Origin: a virus
Virus record (IMG/VR): IMGVR_UViG_3300010401_000033
Coordinates: 70,940-134,939 of that record
Reading direction: 5' to 3' (one strand)
DNA length: 64,000 nucleotides
Below, one piece after another: positions 53,497-63,969 of this stretch. Positions within the stretch are counted from its first letter, which is position 1. Each line of letters opens with the position of its first letter. The notes below the pieces were generated by a model. It was not told where the DNA came from and did no database searches. It saw only the letters and a program-made list of their open reading frames with translations. The position numbers and the translations under genes are program-made.

Positions 53497-54669
53497 TTAT
53501 CCTTTCACGCACAAAATCTGGCGAAGTTGCGCGACGACCCTCACGAGGTCATTTTGATTTTCCATGACCCGGTCGATGTCCTTGTACGCCCCAGGCAATT
53601 CATCCAAGATACCTGCATCCTTACGACACACGATACCCGCCGTCTGCTTCTCAGCATCCTCTAAGGTAAAGGCTGACTTTGCCTTTGAGCGCGACTTGAC
53701 ACGACCTGCGCCGTGTGAGCACGAACAAAACGATTCAGGGTTTCCCAAACCTTCAACGATATAAGATCGGGTGCCCATCGATCCAGGAATAATACCAACA
53801 TCACCAATGCGAGCACGAACAGCCCCCTTACGGGTAACAATGACATTCTCGCCATAGTGATTTTCCTTTTCCGCATAGTTGTGGTGACAGTTCACCATGA
53901 GTTCAGGACCCATGTCGGCATCCTTGATATCCGTGCCAAAAATCGTCTTGGCCACTGCATCACGCACCAAGCGCATCATGAGTTCGCGGTTCTTCATCGC
54001 GTACCTCTGTGCCCACTGCAAATCACGCCAGTATTCATCATACAACACAGAACCCTCCGCAAGGTAGGCAAGGTTCGGGTCATGTAACTTTATCATATAC
54101 TGGTTCATGACTTCCTTCGCACGATCAATGTAGTAGTTCCCGATCTTGTTACCAATACCGCGGGAACCCGAGTGCAACATGATCCACACATTATCTTCCA
54201 AGTCAAGGCACACCTCAATGAAGTGGTTTCCGCCACCCAAGGTGCCTAACTGCTTCCCAATGCGCTCCGGGTTATCCTGAACCTTCTTCGGGAGGTGGCT
54301 CACGTCAACCAAATCAACCATAGAATGATTGTGCATATCCTGTCCAACGGGAACCGCCTTGCAAATCGCATCGTAGACTGCCTGAATGTTATCTGATACA
54401 CGCTTCCAGGGGCGCGGCATACGAGCCGCCATCATACCGCATCCAATATCCACACCCACACACGCCGGGACAATGGCACCCTTCGTGGCTACCACAGACC
54501 CTACAGTCGCCCCGATACCATAATGCACGTCCGGCATGACAGCCACATGCTTAAATATGAACGGGAGAGACGCCGTGTTGCGTAACTGATCTAACGCCGA
54601 CGATTCAACTTCGTGGATCGGCGACCAAATCTTAATTGGCTTATGAGTTCCGGTCTGTAAAACGTTCAT
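53497..54669 (-). CDS. rtcB: RtcB RNA ligase
   Basis: MPDVH.G.G, VGVDIGCG, GTLGGGNHF, HSGSRG, HHN, IPGSMG, SHGAGR. Confidence 0.96.
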   Translation of the reverse strand: MNVLQTGTHKPIKIWSPIHEVESSALDQLRNTASLPFIFKHVAVMPDVHYGIGATVGSVVATKGAIVPACVGVDIGCGMMAARMPRPWKRVSDNIQAVYDAICKAVPVGQDMHNHSMVDLVDVSHLPKKVQDNPERIGKQLGTLGGGNHFIEVCLDLEDNVWIMLHSGSRGIGNKIGNYYIDRAKEVMNQYMIKLHDPNLAYLAEGSVLYDEYWRDLQWAQRYAMKNRELMMRLVRDAVAKTIFGTDIKDADMGPELMVNCHHNYAEKENHYGENVIVTRKGAVRARIGDVGIIPGSMGTRSYIVEGLGNPESFCSCSHGAGRVKSRSKAKSAFTLEDAEKQTAGIVCRKDAGILDELPGAYKDIDRVMENQNDLVRVVAQLRQILCVKG

Positions 54670-54677
54670 GATACTCC

Positions 54678-54872
54678 TTAGAAAACGTAGTTCTTCTTCT
54701 TGCGCTTGTAATCTTCCTCAATCCACTTCACTTGTCGTGCTGAGAGGAGAGGGGAGACAAATCCTGTGACAGTGGAGTACAACAGCGTCCCCTCGGTCGT
54801 CACAACCTTAAGGTGCTCGCCTGTGCGGCTCCAATCCAGTAACATATCAATATCTGAAATTTTCTCTGCCAT
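54678..54872 (-). CDS. hypothetical protein
   Basis: Operonic ORF. Confidence 0.5.
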   Translation of the reverse strand: MAEKISDIDMLLDWSRTGEHLKVVTTEGTLLYSTVTGFVSPLLSARQVKWIEEDYKRKKKNYVF

Positions 54873-54873
54873 C

Positions 54874-55317
54874 TTATTTCTCCTTCGGTAACTGATTCAA
54901 AAACACGTCCATTTCATGCTTGTAGGCACCCTGTGCCCACTTCATTCTCTTACGACCCTGATCTGTAGACATGAAATAGGTCCATGACTCAGCCTTATTT
55001 AAGCGTACAACTTCCAGCAATGATAACGCCATAACTAGATCGGCATGAAGCGCCTGATACTTCGCCTGTTGTTCTGTGGCTCTCTTCTCAAGTTCATGCG
55101 AATGGTCTTGTGCTGCCCTCGCCTTGGACCTCGCATCCTCTACATGCAATTGAAGTTCAGTGAGCGCCTTTACTTCTTCGGGGGCAACCTTCGCCGGCTT
55201 GTCGGAATAGGCTTCTTGCAGTTCCCGTTCGAGCCGCGCAGTCTCTTTCTGTGCGTCGGCAAGGTCTGCCTTGAGGTCCGCAATCTCTTGAGCGGTTTCA
55301 TCCATGACGTTATTCAT
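54874..55317 (-). CDS. coiled-coil hypothetical protein
   Basis: Start reassigned to the ATG overlapping the ligase end. Confidence 0.55.
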   Translation of the reverse strand: MNNVMDETAQEIADLKADLADAQKETARLERELQEAYSDKPAKVAPEEVKALTELQLHVEDARSKARAAQDHSHELEKRATEQQAKYQALHADLVMALSLLEVVRLNKAESWTYFMSTDQGRKRMKWAQGAYKHEMDVFLNQLPKEK

Positions 55318-56467
55318 AATCACGTACAGCAATGCCGACAGGGAAAATCGGAATGCCATCGTCACTCAAACATTGATAGCGAACGGTCAGTTCCTTCCCA
55401 AAATAACTCTTACGATTCTGCCATTGTTCCTCACGGACTGAATCCTCGCCTTTGCATCGCACGTCAAATTCCTGCTTGTTCTTTGTTTGGCAACGGAAAA
55501 TGGCTTTCCCTTCATCCTTCCCTGTACCTTCTTTGCACCCGACAATCACGAATTCATCGTCAATGAAATCCTTATGCTTCTGCAATTGGTTATCACGGTA
55601 CTGAAAGTTGTAGGCTTCATTACCACCAGAGCGTATAATGGAACCTTCGTAGCCTGCTTGTGTGTAGGCACTGTGTACCTTGTCAATGTCCTTTGGAGAC
55701 AGAATCTTGATCGTCTCGACCAACCGGAGATAGTTCAACCCATTCGGAATCTGTGAACGATAACTGAGGTAACGGTCCGCAAATCCCCACTTGAGGGTGG
55801 TTGGACGATCATAACAATGGAACTTCACGTATCGCTTCAATTGCTCAACGTCCGGGTGCTTTTCATCCTTAATCAGCGACATAAGTTGCTGGAAGGTGAG
55901 TTCTCCGTGGTTATACATTTCCCCATCAAGGATATCCCCATCCTTCATGAAACTCAAAAACTCCTGCTCCATATAGAGATTGAAATTCTTGTACTTCTTT
56001 GCCTTGCGGGACCAGAAGGTAATTGTGTCACCTGTACGCTGAACGAGGCAACGGACTCCATTCAACTTCGGCTGAATGAAGGCTGGCCAGACGATATACT
56101 TGGCTCGTTCCTTGTACTTCTGTGCCAACATGGGCAGTAACTTGAGTTCAATCTTGGCATCCGCCGAAGGCTTTGTCTCCGTATAGTTCTTGTCGTGCTG
56201 TTTCTTCCACTTTGACTCTGCCTCTAAGAGCGCCTGCTCATAAGGGGTCGTCTCATTGGCTTTACCAGTGTTCTTTCCCTCACGAATCGTCTCAGGTGAC
56301 TCCTGAATCTTACCATCAAGTTGTCCATGACGAATCATGATAACCGGGGCATTGGAATGCTTCTGGACACTGATCTCCCATACCTTTATCACACCCTTTG
56401 AGGAAGTGCCATAGAGGGTGGGGAAGGTATCAACCGTTTTCGTCTTATTGCTTTTGTAAATCGTCAC
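55310..56467 (-). CDS. ATP-dependent DNA ligase
   Basis: PMLA, QPKLNGVR (motif I), LDGE.Y, EG..IR, K.K, P.FPV...RDYE. Confidence 0.9.
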   Translation of the reverse strand: MTIYKSNKTKTVDTFPTLYGTSSKGVIKVWEISVQKHSNAPVIMIRHGQLDGKIQESPETIREGKNTGKANETTPYEQALLEAESKWKKQHDKNYTETKPSADAKIELKLLPMLAQKYKERAKYIVWPAFIQPKLNGVRCLVQRTGDTITFWSRKAKKYKNFNLYMEQEFLSFMKDGDILDGEMYNHGELTFQQLMSLIKDEKHPDVEQLKRYVKFHCYDRPTTLKWGFADRYLSYRSQIPNGLNYLRLVETIKILSPKDIDKVHSAYTQAGYEGSIIRSGGNEAYNFQYRDNQLQKHKDFIDDEFVIVGCKEGTGKDEGKAIFRCQTKNKQEFDVRCKGEDSVREEQWQNRKSYFGKELTVRYQCLSDDGIPIFPVGIAVRDYE

Positions 56468-56859
56468 TTTGATTCTCCTGGAAAAAGGTTTCCACCTGTG
56501 AATATATTCAACAACTGTCTCTTAGCCTGTAGCAACTCTGCTTTGGCATCTAAGGCAGCATCTATCTCTTTCAAAAACCATGATATTTGGTGATTGTTGC
56601 GAGCCGTCAACTCCCCTTCAAGGAATCGCTTCTCAAGTTGCTGCATAAGGTGGTTATACTTTCCACCATCCCCACTTGGTCCGGTGACCGTCGCATACAA
56701 CCTATTCAAATCCTCAATACGTTGCCTCAAATCCGTGATGGCACGGCAGGCAATTTCATGAGTCGGGGTCGCCAACATTTGGTTAGCGACCTGTTTGCGA
56801 TATTCCGGGTCGTCGTATCGGCTCACATTTTGATCGACAAAAGGCATCTCATTACTCAC
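56464..56859 (-). CDS. hypothetical protein
   Basis: Operonic ORF. Confidence 0.55.
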   Translation of the reverse strand: MSNEMPFVDQNVSRYDDPEYRKQVANQMLATPTHEIACRAITDLRQRIEDLNRLYATVTGPSGDGGKYNHLMQQLEKRFLEGELTARNNHQISWFLKEIDAALDAKAELLQAKRQLLNIFTGGNLFPGESK

Positions 56860-57781
56860 ACTTCAAAAGATGTAACAACAGACTATCCACTAGTGCACCG
56901 TCTACCTCTTCGGGTAACGTAGAATTCTTGGAGAGCAATTCTACTTCTTCCATGAGGGTATCAAGTTTGGGGGCCACTTCGTTTACAAAATGCAGTGCCC
57001 CACTCTTTACAGCACGGAGAAATTCTGTCTCAGGCAACGGATAGGTGAAATCCCCATCCTTAAGGATACCGCGCACTTGATACGCCGCCCTGAACGCATG
57101 GCTTATGGCTTTCCAGTCTACCCCTTCGTTCGTCTCGGCTTGTTTGGCACGGGCGCCATAATTCTCCACAAAACGCTCCACCATAGATACATAATGTCCA
57201 GTGGTTGCATTCAGGGTCATTTTCTTTCCGCACATTTCATAGAACGTTACACCCTCAGCGGTCATGAGTCCACAATGCTCACCCGTAGGGAGCGTGAGAC
57301 GAACATCATTTACCTTTGTATCTGGGTGGTTCGCTTTGAGGATATCCAATACTGCCTTGGCTTCCGCAAGTCGTGAACCCTTCACCCCATACTTTGCGGC
57401 TTGCTTCCGAGCATAGCCTACCAATGAGGAGAGATTCTTGGTGTAGAACATCCTGCGGTTAGCAACCAAACATTCCCAATGCCAGGTATAGGATAACCAG
57501 GCAGACTTGGGTGCATGGAGCATATCCAGGGCAACGGTTTCCCCCTTCTTGGCTAACTCCAAAAAGTAGTGCAGGGAATACGTTTCCTTGTCGGTGTCCT
57601 CAGAGGTATTCTTTTCGTTGGAATTCAACTTAGTGTTTTCGTTGATAGACTTTGGGAACCTTCCCAAAAGCATATCATCAAAAGAAGGCATGTACACACC
57701 CTTGTAGTCTTTGTCGGACGAGGGGCTTGACGTGCCGTAGAGGTGGGAACCGAAAACCATTTCAACTAGATTCGTTCGCAT
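56852..57781 (-). CDS. Pol-beta-superfamily nucleotidyltransferase (T4 NrdC.11-like)
   Basis: FGSHLYGT....SD.D.KG, YA.KQA.KY..KGSRL, DWKA.SHA.R. Confidence 0.85.
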   Translation of the reverse strand: MRTNLVEMVFGSHLYGTSSPSSDKDYKGVYMPSFDDMLLGRFPKSINENTKLNSNEKNTSEDTDKETYSLHYFLELAKKGETVALDMLHAPKSAWLSYTWHWECLVANRRMFYTKNLSSLVGYARKQAAKYGVKGSRLAEAKAVLDILKANHPDTKVNDVRLTLPTGEHCGLMTAEGVTFYEMCGKKMTLNATTGHYVSMVERFVENYGARAKQAETNEGVDWKAISHAFRAAYQVRGILKDGDFTYPLPETEFLRAVKSGALHFVNEVAPKLDTLMEEVELLSKNSTLPEEVDGALVDSLLLHLLKCE

Positions 57782-59300: not shown

Positions 59301-59375
59301 TGGTGCACCGCCCAGGAATTGCACCCGGTTCCCCTGGTTAAAAGCCAGGTAATCATCTACTAAATTTTGCGGTGC
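59301..59375 (-). tRNA. tRNA-Lys(UUU)
   Basis: Cloverleaf; CCTGG-CTTTTAA-CCAGG; CCA encoded; T-loop TGCAATT. Confidence 0.85.
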
Positions 59376-59380
59376 GTATA

Positions 59381-59454
59381 TGGTCGACCCTACAGGTTAC
59401 GCTCCTGTCTCTCCACAATGTCAATGTGGCATCTTGCTAATGGACGAAGGGTCG
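59381..59454 (-). tRNA. tRNA-Val(GAC)
   Basis: CCACA-TTGACAT-TGTGG; CCA; T-loop AGCGTAA. Confidence 0.8.
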
Positions 59455-59457
59455 TCG

Positions 59458-59534
59458 TGGTCTCCCTGACAGGACTCGAACCTGCATAATCGCTGGGTCG
59501 AAACCAGCGTGGCTTCCATTGCCGTCACAGGGAG
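59458..59534 (-). tRNA. tRNA-Arg(UCG)
   Basis: GCTGG-TTTCGAC-CCAGC; canonical T-loop; CCA. Confidence 0.8.
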
Positions 59535-59535
59535 G

Positions 59536-59937
59536 TTAGATCAAAAAGTCTCTCCACTTGATATCAAAAATACAATTCTCAGGAGCCCCACGAAACATCG
59601 GGGCGATCTGTGCATCCGTATATCCTGCCAAGCCACAACCTATGCGGGTGACAAAAAATACCTCATGCTCGTAGTATCGTGCGTATTCTAAAAAATCCTT
59701 CACCTGATGGTGAATATACTCCAATGCCAAAACATCAAGGTCTGCGCCCTTGGTAGGAATCGCATAGGATTGCCCGGTGAGTCCAATCCCTACTCCGTTC
59801 TTTGCTCCATAGTTCTCACGGGCACACTTCGCGGCTCCCGCTCCATGACGCCCTGCGAGGTTCGAGCCAAACACAAAGATACAGTCCTTGTACGCGGAAG
59901 AATGCCTTGGATAATCTTCATCAAAAAATAACATCAC
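59536..59937 (-). CDS. conserved phage protein, possibly macrodomain-like
   Basis: IFVFGSNLAGRHGAGAA, SYAIPTK, VTRIGCGLAGY; function tentative. Confidence 0.65.
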   Translation of the reverse strand: MMLFFDEDYPRHSSAYKDCIFVFGSNLAGRHGAGAAKCARENYGAKNGVGIGLTGQSYAIPTKGADLDVLALEYIHHQVKDFLEYARYYEHEVFFVTRIGCGLAGYTDAQIAPMFRGAPENCIFDIKWRDFLI

Positions 59938-59945
59938 ATCCTTAA

Positions 59946-60022
59946 TGGTGCCACTGGTGGGATTCTAACCCACAATTTCCCGCTTAGGAGGCGAGCGCAT
60001 TGTACAGTTATGCTACAGCGGC
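59946..60022 (-). tRNA. tRNA-Arg(CCU)
   Basis: CTCGC-CTCCTAA-GCGGG; CCA; T-loop TTAGAAT. Confidence 0.88.
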
Positions 60023-60023
60023 G

Positions 60024-60227
60024 TTAGTCCTTCATCGTGGGCTTAAACCACATGAGCGATTCAACACACTCCTCAAACATTTCGTCCGTAATCAATCCCT
60101 GCAATTGCATGATATGAAACGCATTCATCAGGAATCCCCACTTCTGCCACTCCAAGTCCTCGCGGATACCTTCATCCGTAAAGTCCTGTGGGTTTCTGAT
60201 TTCACGTTTAATCTCGGTCAATCGCAT
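60024..60227 (-). CDS. hypothetical protein
   Basis: MRLTEIKREIRNPQDF...; AAGGA SD; lies between tRNAs. Confidence 0.55.
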   Translation of the reverse strand: MRLTEIKREIRNPQDFTDEGIREDLEWQKWGFLMNAFHIMQLQGLITDEMFEECVESLMWFKPTMKD

Positions 60228-60242
60228 AATGTTCCTTTGGTA

Positions 60243-60318
60243 TGGTCCCCCTGGCAGGAGTTTAACCTGCGGTCTCCTTGTTAGAAGCAAGGCATGTTGT
60301 ACGCTACACCACAGAGGG
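60243..60318 (-). tRNA. tRNA-Arg(UCU)
   Basis: CCTTG-CTTCTAA-CAAGG; CCA; T-loop TTAAACT. Confidence 0.88.
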
Positions 60319-60327
60319 ATAACTTAG

Positions 60328-60410
60328 ATGGTAGAGGTCATCACTCCTCACTTATCCCACCCCAGCCTCATCGACCAGACTATGGGCTTCGTAGATTGTA
60401 TCCTACCATC
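60328..60410 (-). ncRNA. unknown multibranched small RNA candidate
   Basis: GATGGTAG/CTACCATC closing stem with internal hairpins. Confidence 0.45.
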
Positions 60411-60420
60411 ATAAAAACGA

Positions 60421-60478
60421 TGCACAGAAGAGGAATCGAACCTCAATATGGGGCGCCCCATAATGCCCAGTCTGTGCA
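60421..60478 (-). ncRNA. mini tRNA-like RNA lacking an anticodon loop
   Basis: GCACAGA/TCTGTGC acceptor; GAGG-TTCGATT-CCTC T-arm; TATGGG-GCGC-CCCATA arm; no D-stem and no CCA. Confidence 0.65.
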
Positions 60479-60483
60479 ACGAT

Positions 60484-60557
60484 TGGTGCTCCCACCGGGT
60501 GCTGCCCCCGGCTCTCCAGATTGAGAATCTGGCGATCTACTGATAATCTATGGGAGC
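60484..60557 (-). tRNA. tRNA-Glu(CUC)
   Basis: CCAGA-TTCTCAA-TCTGG; CCA; T-loop GGCAGCA. Confidence 0.8.
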
Positions 60558-60625
60558 GTAATGCTAGGGGCCCCACTTGAGGACCCCGTATGCTCATTTC
60601 CTACACATGGTAGGTGAGCGGTGAT

Positions 60626-60960
60626 TGGTGGAGCCGCCGGGAATTGCACCCGGGTCCAAAAACAACGTCGAAGGGGATTTTCATGCTAGACGATCTAACT
60701 GGATTGCCAACAAGGATCGTCAACCTGTTGGATATCGGAGCGAACATCCATCTAACCGTCCACGTAAAGGATGGGAACTTTACGATTTGACCTATAATGA
60801 CGTTTCCCCACATATAGGTGTCTGTGGTTCAACGGGCGGGGATTATGCCGCCATTGCAAACTCGCGTTCGACAATTCTGGTTTTCTAAGTTTTTACAGGG
60901 CCCTAGTCCCTGGCATGTCCTGTGCTTCTCTGTACGTCTCTGTCGATCCTGTGCGACCCC
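60626..60960 (-). ncRNA. ssrA: tmRNA
   Basis: 5' GGGGTCG..TCGAC and 3' CCGGGTGCAATTCCCGGCGGCTCCACCA with a G3-U Ala pair; tag ORF VEREFAMAA* at 60843-60872. Confidence 0.92.
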
Positions 60961-61056
60961 TTTCTCTGATTAAATAATTCTTCTAACTTACCTTCGCGGT
61001 CGAGTCTATCACACAACTCTGTAATTTGATTCACTAGCGCAAAGTAAGTACCCATG

Positions 61057-61284
61057 TTACCAACTATCGTAATCCGTCAAATCAATTACCGCGCCAGTAA
61101 CAGTATTCTCAACCTTAAGCACGGTGCCTATCGACGTGGGGGTAAAGTGATACGTGTACGCCCCGCCTATCGCTCCGTAGTGAGGACACTCACAACCTTC
61201 TTTGGTGGCCTGCCAAATCTTGTCCTGCTCCTCTATAAATGCGTTAATCTTTTCCTGTTCCTCGGGCGTCACATGAAACTTCAT
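61057..61284 (-). CDS. conserved hypothetical phage protein
   Basis: GAIGG.Y.Y.FTPTSIG....V, DLTDY..W. Confidence 0.65.
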   Translation of the reverse strand: MKFHVTPEEQEKINAFIEEQDKIWQATKEGCECPHYGAIGGAYTYHFTPTSIGTVLKVENTVTGAVIDLTDYDSW

Positions 61285-61616
61285 AATAAATTCCTTCTTT
61301 GCTTCCTTCGTTTATTCCCCTCTTCTAATGCCACTTTCCAAGAAGGTAGTTTTGTCAAATCCAAAACATTTTCTCTCGGAGTACCCCAGTATAAATGCTT
61401 TGGGTTGCAACAGAGGCTATTATTACAAGCGTGGCATAGGTATACTCGACCCATTCCCTTTGGAATGGTTGTTCTCAACTCATACGCCAGAAGGGCCCTG
61501 TATTCCGTGGAACATCTACCACCCAGTTCGATACAAGGTTCACTAAGGTCAAGGTGCGCTTGTCGCTCCTTTAGTTCCCTTGTGATATAGGTATAAATGT
61601 TCTCAAAAATCAACAT
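61281..61616 (-). CDS. HNH-type (His-Cys) endonuclease-like protein
   Basis: CHACNN..CCNP.HLYWGT..EN..D. Confidence 0.75.
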   Translation of the reverse strand: MLIFENIYTYITRELKERQAHLDLSEPCIELGGRCSTEYRALLAYELRTTIPKGMGRVYLCHACNNSLCCNPKHLYWGTPRENVLDLTKLPSWKVALEEGNKRRKQRRNLL

Positions 61617-61624
61617 AATATGAG

Positions 61625-61715
61625 TGGCGGAGAGAAGAGGACTTGCACCCCAACGCTTTTTACACGTCGATCTGCTTTCAAAACAGTCCCAATACGCTTG
61701 CCTGGTTTTCTCTCC
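61625..61715 (-). tRNA. tRNA-Ser(UGA)
   Basis: Loop TTTGAAA; long variable arm; G73; CCA. Confidence 0.85.
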
Positions 61716-61717
61716 AT

Positions 61718-61807
61718 TTATTGCATTTTCAGAATTTCAGTGAGAGCCAACACCAATCCCATGAGCACCGCGGCTCCAAACCACACTAACACTTCTTTCC
61801 AACTCAT
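61718..61807 (-). CDS. small membrane peptide, 29 aa
   Basis: MSWKEVLVWFGAAVLMGLVLALTEILKMQ; AAGGA SD. Confidence 0.5.
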   Translation of the reverse strand: MSWKEVLVWFGAAVLMGLVLALTEILKMQ

Positions 61808-61815
61808 TATATCCT

Positions 61816-61903
61816 TGGCGGAAGAGACAGGATTTGAACCTGCGTGGCTGTTACACCGCATCGCTTTCCAAGCGAGCACCATTAGCCTCTCGGTCACTCT
61901 TCC
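61816..61903 (-). tRNA. tRNA-Ser(GGA)
   Basis: Loop TTGGAAA; long variable arm; CCA. Confidence 0.92.
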
Positions 61904-62311
61904 TTAAAATCGTTTCTGATACACTCGCCAAATCTTTTGTGCCACATCCAAATTAAAATGGGGCTTCTTATCTCTTACTTGCTTTTCATCTTCATCTGTC
62001 AACAGATATCGTGCCAATCCGACGGCGATGCCTGCGGATCGTGACATGCCTGCTTCACAGTGAATCACAATTCTATCAGAATCTAACAACCACTTCTCAA
62101 CGAAGTCTGCCACTTCAACCGCTTGGGCGTCTGAGAACCCCTGTTCATGCACTTCGTACCGCATCGTGTCTTTGAAGTGAAGATTCAGCCGTGCCAAACA
62201 ATCAACAGACTGGCGCGGGTGCTCTCTTCCAGGTGATACAATAGAAATCACGATATCACGGTTCGTGATGGGCTCAACACGAAATTCCTGCTCTGATAAC
62301 ACTCGAATCAT
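61904..62311 (-). CDS. PTP/dual-specificity phosphatase-like protein
   Basis: IHCEAGMSRS (CX5R). Confidence 0.8.
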   Translation of the reverse strand: MIRVLSEQEFRVEPITNRDIVISIVSPGREHPRQSVDCLARLNLHFKDTMRYEVHEQGFSDAQAVEVADFVEKWLLDSDRIVIHCEAGMSRSAGIAVGLARYLLTDEDEKQVRDKKPHFNLDVAQKIWRVYQKRF

Positions 62312-62323
62312 AATGTATCCTGC

Positions 62324-62411
62324 TGGCGGAAGGCTGAGGTCTTGATCCCCACGGTGTTACCCGCGATTCGCTTTCGAGGCGATCCCGACGCGCCCGTTCG
62401 GTTAACCTTCC
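62324..62411 (-). tRNA. tRNA-Ser(CGA)
   Basis: Loop CTCGAAA; long variable arm; CCA. Confidence 0.85.
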
Positions 62412-62418
62412 AAATACA

Positions 62419-62484
62419 GACCGCGTAGCAAGGTTCCTCTGGTCCCCTTTGCCGCATTCTCCTGTTCGGCGTGAACCCGCGGTC
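62419..62484 (-). ncRNA. unknown small structured RNA candidate
   Basis: Nested GACCGCG/CGCGGTC, GGTTC/GAACC and GCCG/CGGC stems. Confidence 0.5.
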
Positions 62485-62489
62485 ATTTA

Positions 62490-62576
62490 TGGCGGAAGAG
62501 AGAGGACTCGAACCCCACGGTGTTACCCGCGATCCGATTAGCAATCGGTCCAGTTACCCTGCACTGGTTCTCTTCC
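62490..62576 (-). tRNA. tRNA-Ser(GCU)
   Basis: Loop TTGCTAA; long variable arm; CCA. Confidence 0.9.
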
Positions 62577-62579
62577 AAG

Positions 62580-62656
62580 TGGTCTCCTCGGGTGGACTCG
62601 AACCACCGATCTCCACCTTCGCAGGGTGGCGTCTTATCCATCTGGACTACGAGGAG
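62580..62656 (-). tRNA. tRNA-Arg(GCG)
   Basis: CCACC-CTGCGAA-GGTGG; A20; CCA. Confidence 0.9.
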
Positions 62657-62668
62657 GTATGTGCTGAC

Positions 62669-62715
62669 AAGAGTAGCAATTATTTACCGGTGTCGTTATC
62701 ACACCCGCTACTCTT
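62669..62715 (-). ncRNA. small hairpin RNA candidate
   Basis: AAGAGTAGC/GCTACTCTT stem enclosing a GGTGT/ACACC hairpin. Confidence 0.45.
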
Positions 62716-62718
62716 ATA

Positions 62719-62793
62719 TGGTGCACCGCGTAGGAATCAAACCTACTTGATCCTGCTTGTAAAACAGGCGCCTATTCAATCGGCCTGCGGTGC
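62719..62793 (-). tRNA. tRNA-Val(UAC)
   Basis: CCTGT-TTTACAA-GCAGG; CCA; T-loop TTTGATT. Confidence 0.85.
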
Positions 62794-62798
62794 GTATA

Positions 62799-62874
62799 TG
62801 GAGCCCCCTGTCAGAATTGCACTGACCATCTCGACCTTACCAAGGTCTTGCCCCGCTCACTGGGCCTAGAGGGC
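62799..62874 (-). tRNA. tRNA-Thr(GGU)
   Basis: Loop TTGGTAA; CCA; T-loop TGCAATT. Confidence 0.85.
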
Positions 62875-62880
62875 GAATTT

Positions 62881-62950
62881 GTGATAAGTTGCTAAGTTAG
62901 ATTACTTTTGCCCGTTAGGGATTAGAGTTGCCAAAATAACAACTTATCAT
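62881..62950 (-). ncRNA. small structured RNA candidate
   Basis: 13-bp TGATAAGTTGTTA/TAGCAACTTATCA stem with inner TTTTG/CAAAA and CCC-TAAC-GGG. Confidence 0.45.
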
Positions 62951-62958
62951 ATTTAATA

Positions 62959-63236
62959 GGACAAACGATAAGCGGCGTTCTGTCGTGAACTAACATTTAT
63001 CTAGGAGTGTAATTACTCACACCCTCCAGCCTCCTACCCGCCAGATCGTATGCGAACAGCACACTGGCTTATTTGGAGTTGCACCGGATAGAGATTGCTG
63101 GTTTCACTTCCCCCTTGCGGGTTCTTCCTCACTGTGGCTCTAATCCTCGGATTACTCCGGGTGGTCGTTAGCCACTATCCTGTTCTCTGGTGCGCCGACT
63201 TTCCTCTGGCTTGCGCCAGCGTTAGTTTGTTTCTCC
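62959..63236 (-). ncRNA. rnpB: RNase P RNA (compact bacterial type-A-like)
   Basis: GAGGAAAGTCGGCG ... ACAGAACGCCGCTTA (P4); P2 CTAACG/TGTTAG; P3 with GCAA loop; P6 GAACAG/CTGTTC; L15 GGU; P18 with GTAA loop. Confidence 0.92.
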
Positions 63237-63242
63237 TATATG

Positions 63243-63320
63243 TGGTGCCGAAGGTGGGACTCGAACCCACAAGAAACTGGTTTTGAATCAGTTATGTCTG
63301 CCAATTGCAATCACTTCGGC
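63243..63320 (-). tRNA. tRNA-Leu(CAA), short variable loop
   Basis: Loop TTCAAAA; D-loop AATTGGCAGA; A73; CCA. Confidence 0.85.
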
Positions 63321-63562
63321 GGTAAAACTGTTGTGACATACTCACAACCTAATCCGTAGACAACGGTGATAATTCGTCCTCGTAATTCAACTTGAACAAT
63401 CTTTTGTTTCTTCTCCCCTAATGCTTCGAGGAGCCCATTACCTAATTTGGCACATCTACAGAGGTGCTCATAATCTGCCTTTGAGAGAACCATGCTGTAG
63501 CGTTCCTGCAAACGCTGCTTCGTGTGCTCAAATGAGTAGGCTCTGTCTTTCTTCGTTTTCAT
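63311..63562 (-). CDS. hypothetical protein; stop codon lies inside tRNA-Leu(CAA)
   Basis: MKTKKDRAYSFEH..RL.ERY....TTVLPPK*. Confidence 0.6.
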   Translation of the reverse strand: MKTKKDRAYSFEHTKQRLQERYSMVLSKADYEHLCRCAKLGNGLLEALGEKKQKIVQVELRGRIITVVYGLGCEYVTTVLPPK

Positions 63563-63563
63563 A

Positions 63564-63641
63564 TGGTGCCAGAGAAGGGACTCGAACCCCCAGGCGCTTC
63601 GTTTTAAGTGAAGCAGGTCTGCCAATTGCACTCACTCTGGC
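63564..63641 (-). tRNA. tRNA-Leu(UAA), short variable loop
   Basis: Loop CTTAAAA; D-loop AATTGGCAGA; CCA. Confidence 0.85.
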
Positions 63642-63645
63642 GTCA

Positions 63646-63720
63646 TGGAGCCCTTTACTGAACTTGCATCAGCCTATCCTGCTTACGAAACAGGCGCCTC
63701 GCTATCTAGGCTTAAAGGGC
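63646..63720 (-). tRNA. tRNA-Thr(CGU)
   Basis: CCTGT-TTCGTAA-GCAGG; CCA; T-loop TGCAAGT. Confidence 0.85.
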
Positions 63721-63724
63721 ATTA

Positions 63725-63802
63725 TGGTCAGGGAGGTGGGATTTGAACCCACAATCACTCGCTTCCGAAGCGAGTAGAGTAACCAGATTCTCCTACTCCC
63801 TG
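63725..63802 (-). tRNA. tRNA-Pro(CGG)
   Basis: CTCGC-TTCGGAA-GCGAG; C1-G72; CCA. Confidence 0.9.
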
Positions 63803-63813
63803 TTATTCTCGGT

Positions 63814-63893
63814 TCCCCCTCCTGTTACTAGCGGATGCAAGTTTCCTTGCCATGCAAACCTCCGCGCGGTCGGCACTCCTTACAGGAAGGGGA
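63814..63893 (-). ncRNA. unknown small structured RNA candidate
   Basis: TCCCCTTCCTGT/ACAGGAGGGGGA stem; GCGGA/TCCGC; GCAAG-GAAA-CTTGC GNRA hairpin. Confidence 0.55.
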
Positions 63894-63895
63894 TA

Positions 63896-63969
63896 TGGAG
63901 CGAGCACCGGATTCTGCCACCGGGACTGCGGGTTGGAAGCCCGCGGTTTTTCTTGTAAACTATGCTCGC
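63896..63969 (-). tRNA. tRNA-Gly(UCC)
   Basis: GCGGG-CTTCCAA-CCCGC; U73; CCA; T-loop GGCAGAA. Confidence 0.82.

Follow-up and report, generated by a model that had tools for sequence, protein, structure and literature searches.

tRNA-shaped RNAs that do not decode are already known, among them the mitochondrial t-elements, mammalian mascRNA, and transfer-messenger RNA (tmRNA). The MALAT1-associated mascRNA is a non-decoding, tRNA-like RNA of about 60 nucleotides (nt) that has a reduced anticodon arm. This RNA, encoded in the nuclear genome of eukaryotes, is cut free by enzymes of tRNA processing and acquires CCA, and experiments have demonstrated it. In prokaryotes, fragments of tRNA genes occur as 5′ or 3′ pieces left at integration sites. 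Here, we describe a tRNA-like element without an anticodon, which we call the mini-tRNA, on the minus strand of a 64,000-nt stretch of viral DNA (IMG/VR record IMGVR_UViG_3300010401_000033, positions 70,940 to 134,939). This stretch, which we call the window and whose numbering we use, comes from a soil phage and forms the terminal 64 kb of a record of 134,939 bases with a completeness estimate of 80%.

The closest described analogues of such a phage element are the plant-mitochondrial t-elements, tRNA-like folds for which cutting by RNase P and/or RNase Z has been proposed (Forner et al. 2007, PMC1920247). The t-elements, and likewise the signals of the mitochondrial tRNA-punctuation model, resemble the mini-tRNA in being codon-less tRNA-like folds at gene boundaries in polycistronic transcripts. 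They differ from it in being organellar, in flanking mRNAs, and in having ends that were mapped experimentally, whereas the mini-tRNA is phage-encoded, lies between two tRNA genes, and is known from sequence. A second likeness is to the tRNA-like domain (TLD) of tmRNA and to the TLD-only RNA of mycobacteriophage DS6A (L190 179-261; L numbers denote DNA loci fetched for comparison), for which occupation of SmpB is proposed in the cited passage (PMC4131195). Both share with the mini-tRNA an acceptor, a D loop without a stem, a helix at the site of the anticodon arm, a UUCGAUU T-arm, and the lack of an anticodon, and the DS6A RNA is phage-encoded as well. However, the DS6A RNA is 83 nt long and keeps G3.U70 and a tmRNA-type D loop, whereas the mini-tRNA has A3-U70 and a shorter D region.

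Other known RNAs are further removed. The mini-tRNA is similar to mascRNA in size and shape, with no sequence relation between the two. Prokaryote tRNA gene fragments are, like the mini-tRNA, derived from tRNA and not functional adaptors, but the mini-tRNA keeps both acceptor strands and has suffered an internal loss. It does not show the set of features of YrlA-type Y RNA (a tRNA-like module, a Ro60-binding stem, and a TROVE gene nearby). A literature search covering phage tRNA look-alikes, anticodon-less tRNA fragments, and phage tRNA punctuation returned no description of phage anticodon-less tRNA genes, and Rfam 15 contains no family matching an anticodon-less phage mini-tRNA. Should these elements prove to be genuine RNAs, the tRNA arrays of phages would encode not only adaptors but perhaps also punctuation for processing, or molecular decoys deployed in the contest for host tRNA.

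Anatomy and tRNA ancestry of the mini-tRNA

The mini-tRNA starts 6 nt after the encoded CCA of tRNA-Glu(CUC) and is built from the following parts, given from its 5′ end after the entry for the whole element.

60421-60478, minus strand: mini-tRNA from U(-1) to the discriminator A73, 57 nt from G1, recognized by reading of the sequence, folds, a weak tRNA-clan match, and an acceptor/T-arm scan
60478, minus strand: U(-1), with U-1:A73 as a possible eighth acceptor pair
60471-60477, minus strand: acceptor 5′ strand GCACAGA, with 7 of 7 Watson-Crick pairs to the 3′ strand
60463-60470, minus strand: stemless D region CUGGGCAU, containing GGG, from sequence and fold
60447-60462, minus strand: hairpin UAUGGG-GCGC-CCCAUA, 6 bp, a 16-nt perfect palindrome, from sequence
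60429-60445, minus strand: T-arm UGAGG-UUCGAUU-CCUCU, with four Watson-Crick pairs plus U.U and the loop UUCGAUU
60422-60428, minus strand: acceptor 3′ strand UCUGUGC, followed by A73 (60421) and UCGUUUUU

A single U separates the hairpin from the T-arm, and the 3′ tail reads AUCGUUUUU, which means that CCA is not encoded. A preliminary description of this DNA had proposed a perfect acceptor of 7 to 8 bp, a stemless D region, a hairpin replacing the anticodon arm, a UUCGAUU T-loop, and no CCA, at about 5 nt downstream of tRNA-Glu. All of these features can be read on the minus strand; the acceptor has seven pairs, or eight when U-1:A73 is counted, and the measured spacer is 6 nt.

The tRNA-like fold has a free energy of -21.4 kcal/mol, within 0.3 of the minimum free energy of -21.7, and an alternative fold with a GGGC/GCCC D stem reaches -19.9 kcal/mol. 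When the whole insertion described below was folded, the 5′ side of the mini-tRNA paired with downstream sequence, which we judged incidental. In keeping with a canonical tRNA, the element has a 7-bp acceptor stacked on a T stem (4 of 5 pairs) and a UUCRANN loop; its hairpin loop has 4 nt (GCGC) and not the canonical 7 nt of an anticodon loop. ARAGORN made no call at this site, and RF00005 gave no reported match there. The best Rfam match was tRNA-Sec, whose 20.8 bits (E 1.3) fall far short of the gathering score, 47. The tmRNA covariance model had no match at the site at E values up to 10, nor did the Rfam Y RNA families match, and the ends of the mini-tRNA lie in an acceptor stem rather than in a Ro-binding stem.

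In 2.19 Mb of phage loci, we searched for T-arms immediately followed by a 7-bp acceptor, using reversed-sequence decoys as the control. The scan yielded 647 matches versus 3 in the decoys, and 26 versus 1 in the length class of 45 to 66 nt. Because the real matches far exceed those in the decoys, the mini-tRNA is, by this measure, derived from a tRNA and not a chance match. With no anticodon in its predicted structure, it cannot read codons.

Hairpins that are probable anticodon stems without a loop

Exact removal of the 7-nt loop from an anticodon arm would join positions 30, 31, 39, and 40. Among the 530 unique tRNAs called by ARAGORN in the loci examined, GCGC is the commonest such junction (98 tRNAs). 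For this reason, we infer that the GCGC hairpin of the mini-tRNA is an anticodon stem without its 7-nt loop, and we take the similar hairpins of other elements in the same way. One of these elements (L098 4103-4163, minus strand) begins 28 nt after a tRNA-Gly and has a stemless D region with GG, a 7-bp hairpin GCCUUAU-GCGC-AUAAGGC, a UUCGAUU T-arm, and a UGCAC acceptor. In another (L034 1050-1115), the acceptor, D arm, variable loop, and T-arm are normal, and a GCGC-centered palindrome of 10 nt, UGUGCGCACA, stands where the 17-nt anticodon arm would be. Exact loop loss in the window and in two unrelated phage elements would be hard to explain by decay. The hairpin resembling an anticodon stem minus exactly its loop is the point that the window copy adds to the non-decoding tRNA-shaped RNAs already known.

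Recurrence of short anticodon-less elements in other phages

Among the loci fetched via proteins, the acceptor-plus-T-arm scan detected an element of 60 nt in both L060 and L068. The two copies agree at 59 of 60 positions, and identity in the flanks is 54% and 66%. A pattern in which one acceptor type and a short body were specified matched 11 IMG/VR stretches, comprising 8 unique sequences of 57 to 66 nt, and a looser version of it gave three matches in 596 Gb of prokaryote genomes, all on contigs of metagenome-assembled genomes (MAGs). Chance expectations for the IMG/VR patterns were rough hand estimates. Short elements with other acceptors were also present, namely, a second one in L095/L096, a second one in L098, and one each in L132, L121, and L034. 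Four elements lie directly after a tRNA gene, those of the window, L068/L100, L105, and L098.

In L095 (228-284 and 862-917) and L096 (8835-8891 and 9623-9680), two mini-tRNAs of 56 to 57 nt flank an array of three tRNAs; the members of the pairs have similar D arms and connectors, and their acceptor and T stems differ and are fully paired. Four elements on diverged phage contigs (L097 10726-10789, L102 2681-2746, L169 11580-11663, and L185 606-685) have an identical acceptor stem, T-arm, and short flanks, together with middles of 29 to 49 nt that have neither sequence nor length in common; close to these elements are conserved blocks resembling promoters. A 63-nt element on a MAG contig (L105 4596-4658, minus strand) encodes CCA and lies 2 nt after a tRNA-Ser. 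The start of its acceptor and its D arm are also those of a full-length tRNA-Tyr(GUA) from a phage (L186 3516-3604, minus strand), but it is without the anticodon and variable arms.

No conserved protein neighbor is shared among the mini-tRNA loci; a 133-amino-acid (aa) protein considered for this role was rejected, as it was the bait by which loci had been retrieved. We also rejected the UGCACA acceptor as a mark of a family, since a pattern with longer spacing returned at least 81 stretches (at least 42 unique) of ordinary tRNAs, the matches listed including Met (19 rows), Trp (13 rows), Leu (21 rows), and others. A start with (U)GCAC was found in 3 of 4 unique short elements versus 2 of 96 unique full-length matches in the protein-fetched loci, an enrichment that is suggestive and stems from two lineages. 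The pattern UGCAC-N4-UGG...GCGC...T-loop matched only L098 and one partial look-alike, L189. Taken together with these elements, the window element is, as far as sequence can tell, one case of a recurrent and uncatalogued kind of phage mini-tRNA, although a weak example of it, being single and lineage-specific. The look-alikes in other phages strengthen the earlier comparison of its shape, a tRNA top half without an anticodon, with mascRNA and the tmRNA TLD.

A lineage-specific insertion between tRNA-Glu and tRNA-Arg

The mini-tRNA is flanked by two tRNA genes and by a further stretch of about 100 nt.

60484-60557, minus strand: tRNA-Glu(CUC), CCA encoded, Rfam match at 60487-60557 with 46.9 bits, no ARAGORN call, T-loop GGCAGCA
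60319-60420, minus strand: remainder of the insertion, with no significant fold (z -0.79), no convincing open reading frame (ORF), and no relatives
60243-60318, minus strand: tRNA-Arg(UCU), called by ARAGORN; in relatives, it comes directly after tRNA-Glu

Syntenic relatives fetched via neighboring proteins comprised seven contigs (L003, L004, L078, L083, L084, L086, and L087) of three sequence types. The order tmRNA, tRNA-Glu(CUC), tRNA-Arg(UCU) was preserved in all seven, and none of them had an ortholog of the mini-tRNA, the gap between tRNA-Glu and tRNA-Arg being 5 to 12 nt. Because BLAST similarity of the relatives to the window ends exactly at the end of tRNA-Glu and their tRNAs are only 5 to 12 nt apart, the window carries, on this alignment, an insertion of about 165 nt made of the mini-tRNA and about 100 nt more. 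A BLAST search of GenBank phages with the 166-nt insertion returned nothing above noise (E of at least 2), an exact 23-mer of T-arm plus acceptor had no match in IMG/VR, and matches of the 4.7-kb array to GenBank phages spanned single tRNAs only. We found no full-length parent, as none of the ARAGORN tRNAs in the loci examined shares the mini-tRNA acceptor, the best having 4 mismatches. A 16-nt identity of the T-arm to tRNA-Leu(UAA) of L083 was set aside as too generic to use.

In run X2, an independent soil metagenome, a 334-nt contig spans 60335-60668 with two differences, one of which lies inside the mini-tRNA (A5 to G at 60473) and retains the pair as G.U. Since this independent contig spans it, the junction of the element is, by this evidence, not an assembly artifact. 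In further contigs of X2 and X5, the match to the window covers 60000-60318 and gives way to unrelated sequence exactly at the 5′ end of tRNA-Arg; therefore, the region upstream of tRNA-Arg(UCU) varies among close strains. In one more X2 contig, 60324-60364 is linked to a different neighbor. Runs X3, X4, and X5 left positions 60374-60611 without coverage, from which nothing is inferred. Array modules are apparently exchanged at tRNA boundaries among close strains. The locus L078 (1265-1400) carries the 5′ half of a tRNA-Glu(CUC), up to and including the anticodon loop, joined to the 3′ end of a small ORF that also occurs in L004, and this fusion is followed by an inserted ORF and then by a complete tRNA-Glu; the metagenome locus L083 has the same tRNA layout. 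The tRNA-Glu/tRNA-Arg junction is, from these comparisons, prone to rearrangement.

A 67-aa ORF has relatives P0002, P0003, and P0004 at 84, 82, and 72% identity. In L081 (3914-3990), tRNA-Arg(UCU) is closely followed by 67 nt that have the shape of a tRNA, with a T-loop of the GAUCGAUAC type, but that ARAGORN did not call.

Possible processing and origin of the mini-tRNA

The array around the mini-tRNA and the genes a few kilobases from it include the following features that bear on its possible role.

62953-63238, minus strand: phage-encoded bacterial type A RNase P RNA, Rfam 191.5 bits, E 2e-60
60626-60960, minus strand: phage tmRNA, Rfam 78.6 bits
56852-57781, minus strand: RlaP-family Pol-beta nucleotidyltransferase, Pfam PF10127, E 4.7e-16
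55310-56467, minus strand: ATP-dependent ligase, a member of the RNA-repair gene set with RtcB and RlaP (53497-57781)
53497-54669, minus strand: RtcB RNA ligase, Pfam PF01139, E 2.8e-127

We tentatively regard as the most likely reading, at somewhat less than even confidence, that the mini-tRNA is a non-decoding tRNA look-alike and a substrate of RNase P, cut from the array transcript. Having the same orientation as the array and lying 6 nt after tRNA-Glu, it would be cotranscribed with the tRNAs, the tmRNA, and the RNase P RNA. RNase P recognizes the acceptor/T-arm half of a tRNA, and because this half is intact in the mini-tRNA, a cut would be expected at U-1/G+1. The cut would release an RNA of about 57 nt that is unable to decode, and it would also trim the trailer of tRNA-Glu to 6 nt, a step that tRNA-Arg(UCU) would carry out directly in relatives without the 165-nt insertion. 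The RNA is probably never charged, because CCA is absent. This reading is supported by the intact acceptor and T-arm, the near-minimal energy of the tRNA-like fold, the pairing kept by the A5-to-G change, the recurrence of the design in other phages, and its conservation in the L060/L068 lineage, as well as by the array's own RNase P RNA, by U at -1 and G at +1 of the mini-tRNA, and by its placement as a tRNA-like fold between the same-strand tRNA-Glu and tRNA-Arg, with no promoter or terminator found at 60421-60478 by a simple scan. The earlier idea of an RNase P guide would fit both the anatomy and the array's RNase P RNA. The sequences themselves show its anatomy, its descent from a tRNA, the lineage-specific insertion, and the recurrence in other phages; its transcription, its cleavage by RNase P, and any benefit it may bring are what we infer from these features.

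Several observations weigh against this reading. CCA is encoded in 17 of 17 neighboring tRNA-type genes but not in the mini-tRNA, and a CCA-adding enzyme was not found in the 135 kb of the record, a genome about 80% complete. The z-score of the whole-sequence fold is only -2.0. The lack of an ortholog in the seven syntenic contigs, the other 100 nt or so of the insertion, which look like filler, the rearrangement-prone junction, and the divergence of the X2 and X5 contigs exactly at the 5′ end of tRNA-Arg all point the same way. The stretch with the mini-tRNA was not present in the RNA runs searched, the RNA-labelled runs sharing only small parts, and nothing is inferred from this. In addition, the class census requires intact stems, which makes stem covariation across the class unusable as evidence.

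Several of these points are equally those of an inert relic, that is, a tRNA gene mangled by recombination in the array, which would have arrived with about 100 nt of filler, would still fold because it is young, and would be processed, if at all, incidentally. A decayed or rearranged tRNA remains a serious rival and a quite plausible one, because no ortholog was found in the syntenic relatives; close strains differ at the junction, the CCA encoded by all 17 neighbors is missing, L078 has half a tRNA-Glu remnant at the same place, the adjoining 100 nt show neither fold nor ORF signal, and neither a full-length parent nor a homolog was found. On the other hand, the acceptor retains each of its 7 pairs, the T-arm is likewise undamaged, the exact removal of 7 nt that leaves a perfect 16-nt palindrome is unlike random decay, the same design occurs in unrelated phages, and the L060/L068 lineage preserves its mini-tRNA as a conserved island within diverged flanks. 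That the one observed substitution keeps pairing is weak evidence in the same direction. The preliminary description had named the lack of a stable RNA and of conserved homologs as the mark of a decayed tRNA; the second part holds for orthologs in the seven syntenic contigs but does not hold for analogous elements, which are conserved elsewhere. If the window copy is a young relic, it would still document the reshuffling of tRNA arrays at exact tRNA boundaries. A role as decoy or sponge, which the preliminary description had suggested with regard to elbow-binding host factors, we think unlikely. In this role, the mini-tRNA would be a tRNA body that neither carries an amino acid nor decodes, it would tie up a tRNA-binding factor of the host, for which SmpB, an acceptor-end toxin, and a defense sensor are candidates, and it would act alongside the RtcB-RlaP repair genes. 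Anticodon nucleases read the anticodon loop, and a loop-less body is not expected to bind them. The layout does match that of the tmRNA TLD, with its stemless D loop, helix for the anticodon arm, and T-arm (compare DS6A), the phage tmRNA lies 150 nt upstream, and RtcB plus RlaP imply a conflict over tRNA; according to the cited passage, tmRNA is strongly inhibited by a molecule resembling a TLD, and titration of SmpB may be the cause (PMC4131195). However, the mini-tRNA has A3-U70 instead of G3.U70, lacks the tmRNA-type D-loop motif, has no Rfam tmRNA match, and differs in its T-loop from the phage's own tmRNA; genes for SmpB and Ro60/TROVE were not found in the 135 kb, and the mini-tRNA loci have no conserved protein neighbor in common. 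Similarly doubtful is the broader proposal that tRNA bodies lacking a loop or an arm form a distinct, uncatalogued class of small RNA, deliberately carried by phages of many lineages. The window copy, produced by precise loss of its anticodon loop, would then be a working member of the class, an uncleavable and unchargeable mimic that would occupy such a factor (SmpB, an acceptor-end toxin, or a tRNA-sensing defense protein) in concert with the phage RNase P RNA, tmRNA, and RtcB-RlaP.

The sequence could also be read at the DNA level, with the palindrome or the inverted ends and their ATCGTT repeats serving for protein binding or recombination or belonging to a tiny mobile element; its likeness to a tRNA would then be secondary. 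The hairpin does lie in a 22-bp near-palindrome (11+11 nt with one mismatch), a 6-nt direct repeat, ATCGTT, flanks GCACAGA...TCTGTGC, and the location is a recombination hot spot. We nevertheless hold this to be very improbable: the element is a single copy in 135 kb, whereas a miniature mobile element would show multiple copies and repeats; none of the other mini-tRNAs has flanking direct repeats; ATCGTT is nearly self-complementary and doubles as an extension of the stem; no integrase was found in the 135 kb; and the canonical T-loop and stem geometry favor tRNA ancestry. Least probable of all, and close to negligible, is a chance resemblance or the hairpin of an intrinsic terminator. The modest fold z-score and a U5 run that begins 3 nt past the stem would agree with it, but the scan gave 3 matches in decoys against 647 in real sequence, the terminator scan found no site, and the other mini-tRNAs have no U run.

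Other features of the RNA-gene array

The mini-tRNA belongs to a dense array of RNA genes on the minus strand in the last 5 kb of the window. ARAGORN counts 10 tRNAs in this array and misses 6 of 16 as well as the tmRNA, all of which were recovered by Rfam. The RNase P RNA is compact (286 nt), and our literature search turned up no paper on a phage-encoded RNase P RNA. RtcB and RlaP are described, in the cited passages, as a pair for RNA/tRNA repair (bioRxiv 10.64898/2025.12.29.696909; PMC7824862). Two protein-coding genes lie within the array.

61904-62311, within the array: CX5R phosphatase-like gene
61281-61616, within the array: HNH-like gene

The preliminary description had also stated that most neighboring tRNAs have lost the canonical elbow that the mini-tRNA keeps. 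Consistent with this, the T-loop lacks UUCRA in 10 of the 17 neighboring tRNA-type genes, the tmRNA included (59305-63969, minus strand). The noncanonical loops are UGCAAUU (three genes), UGCAAGU, GGCAGCA, GGCAGAA, AGCGUAA, UUAGAAU, UUAAACU, and UUUGAUU.

Two more Ser-like tRNA-shaped genes, at 61620-61715 and 62330-62425 on the minus strand, were recognized by eye; both end in GCCA and are absent from the ARAGORN and Rfam lists. The 133-aa protein mentioned above is encoded at 59536-59937 on the minus strand, has no Pfam match, and is found in 75 IMG/VR phage loci at 42 to 65% identity.

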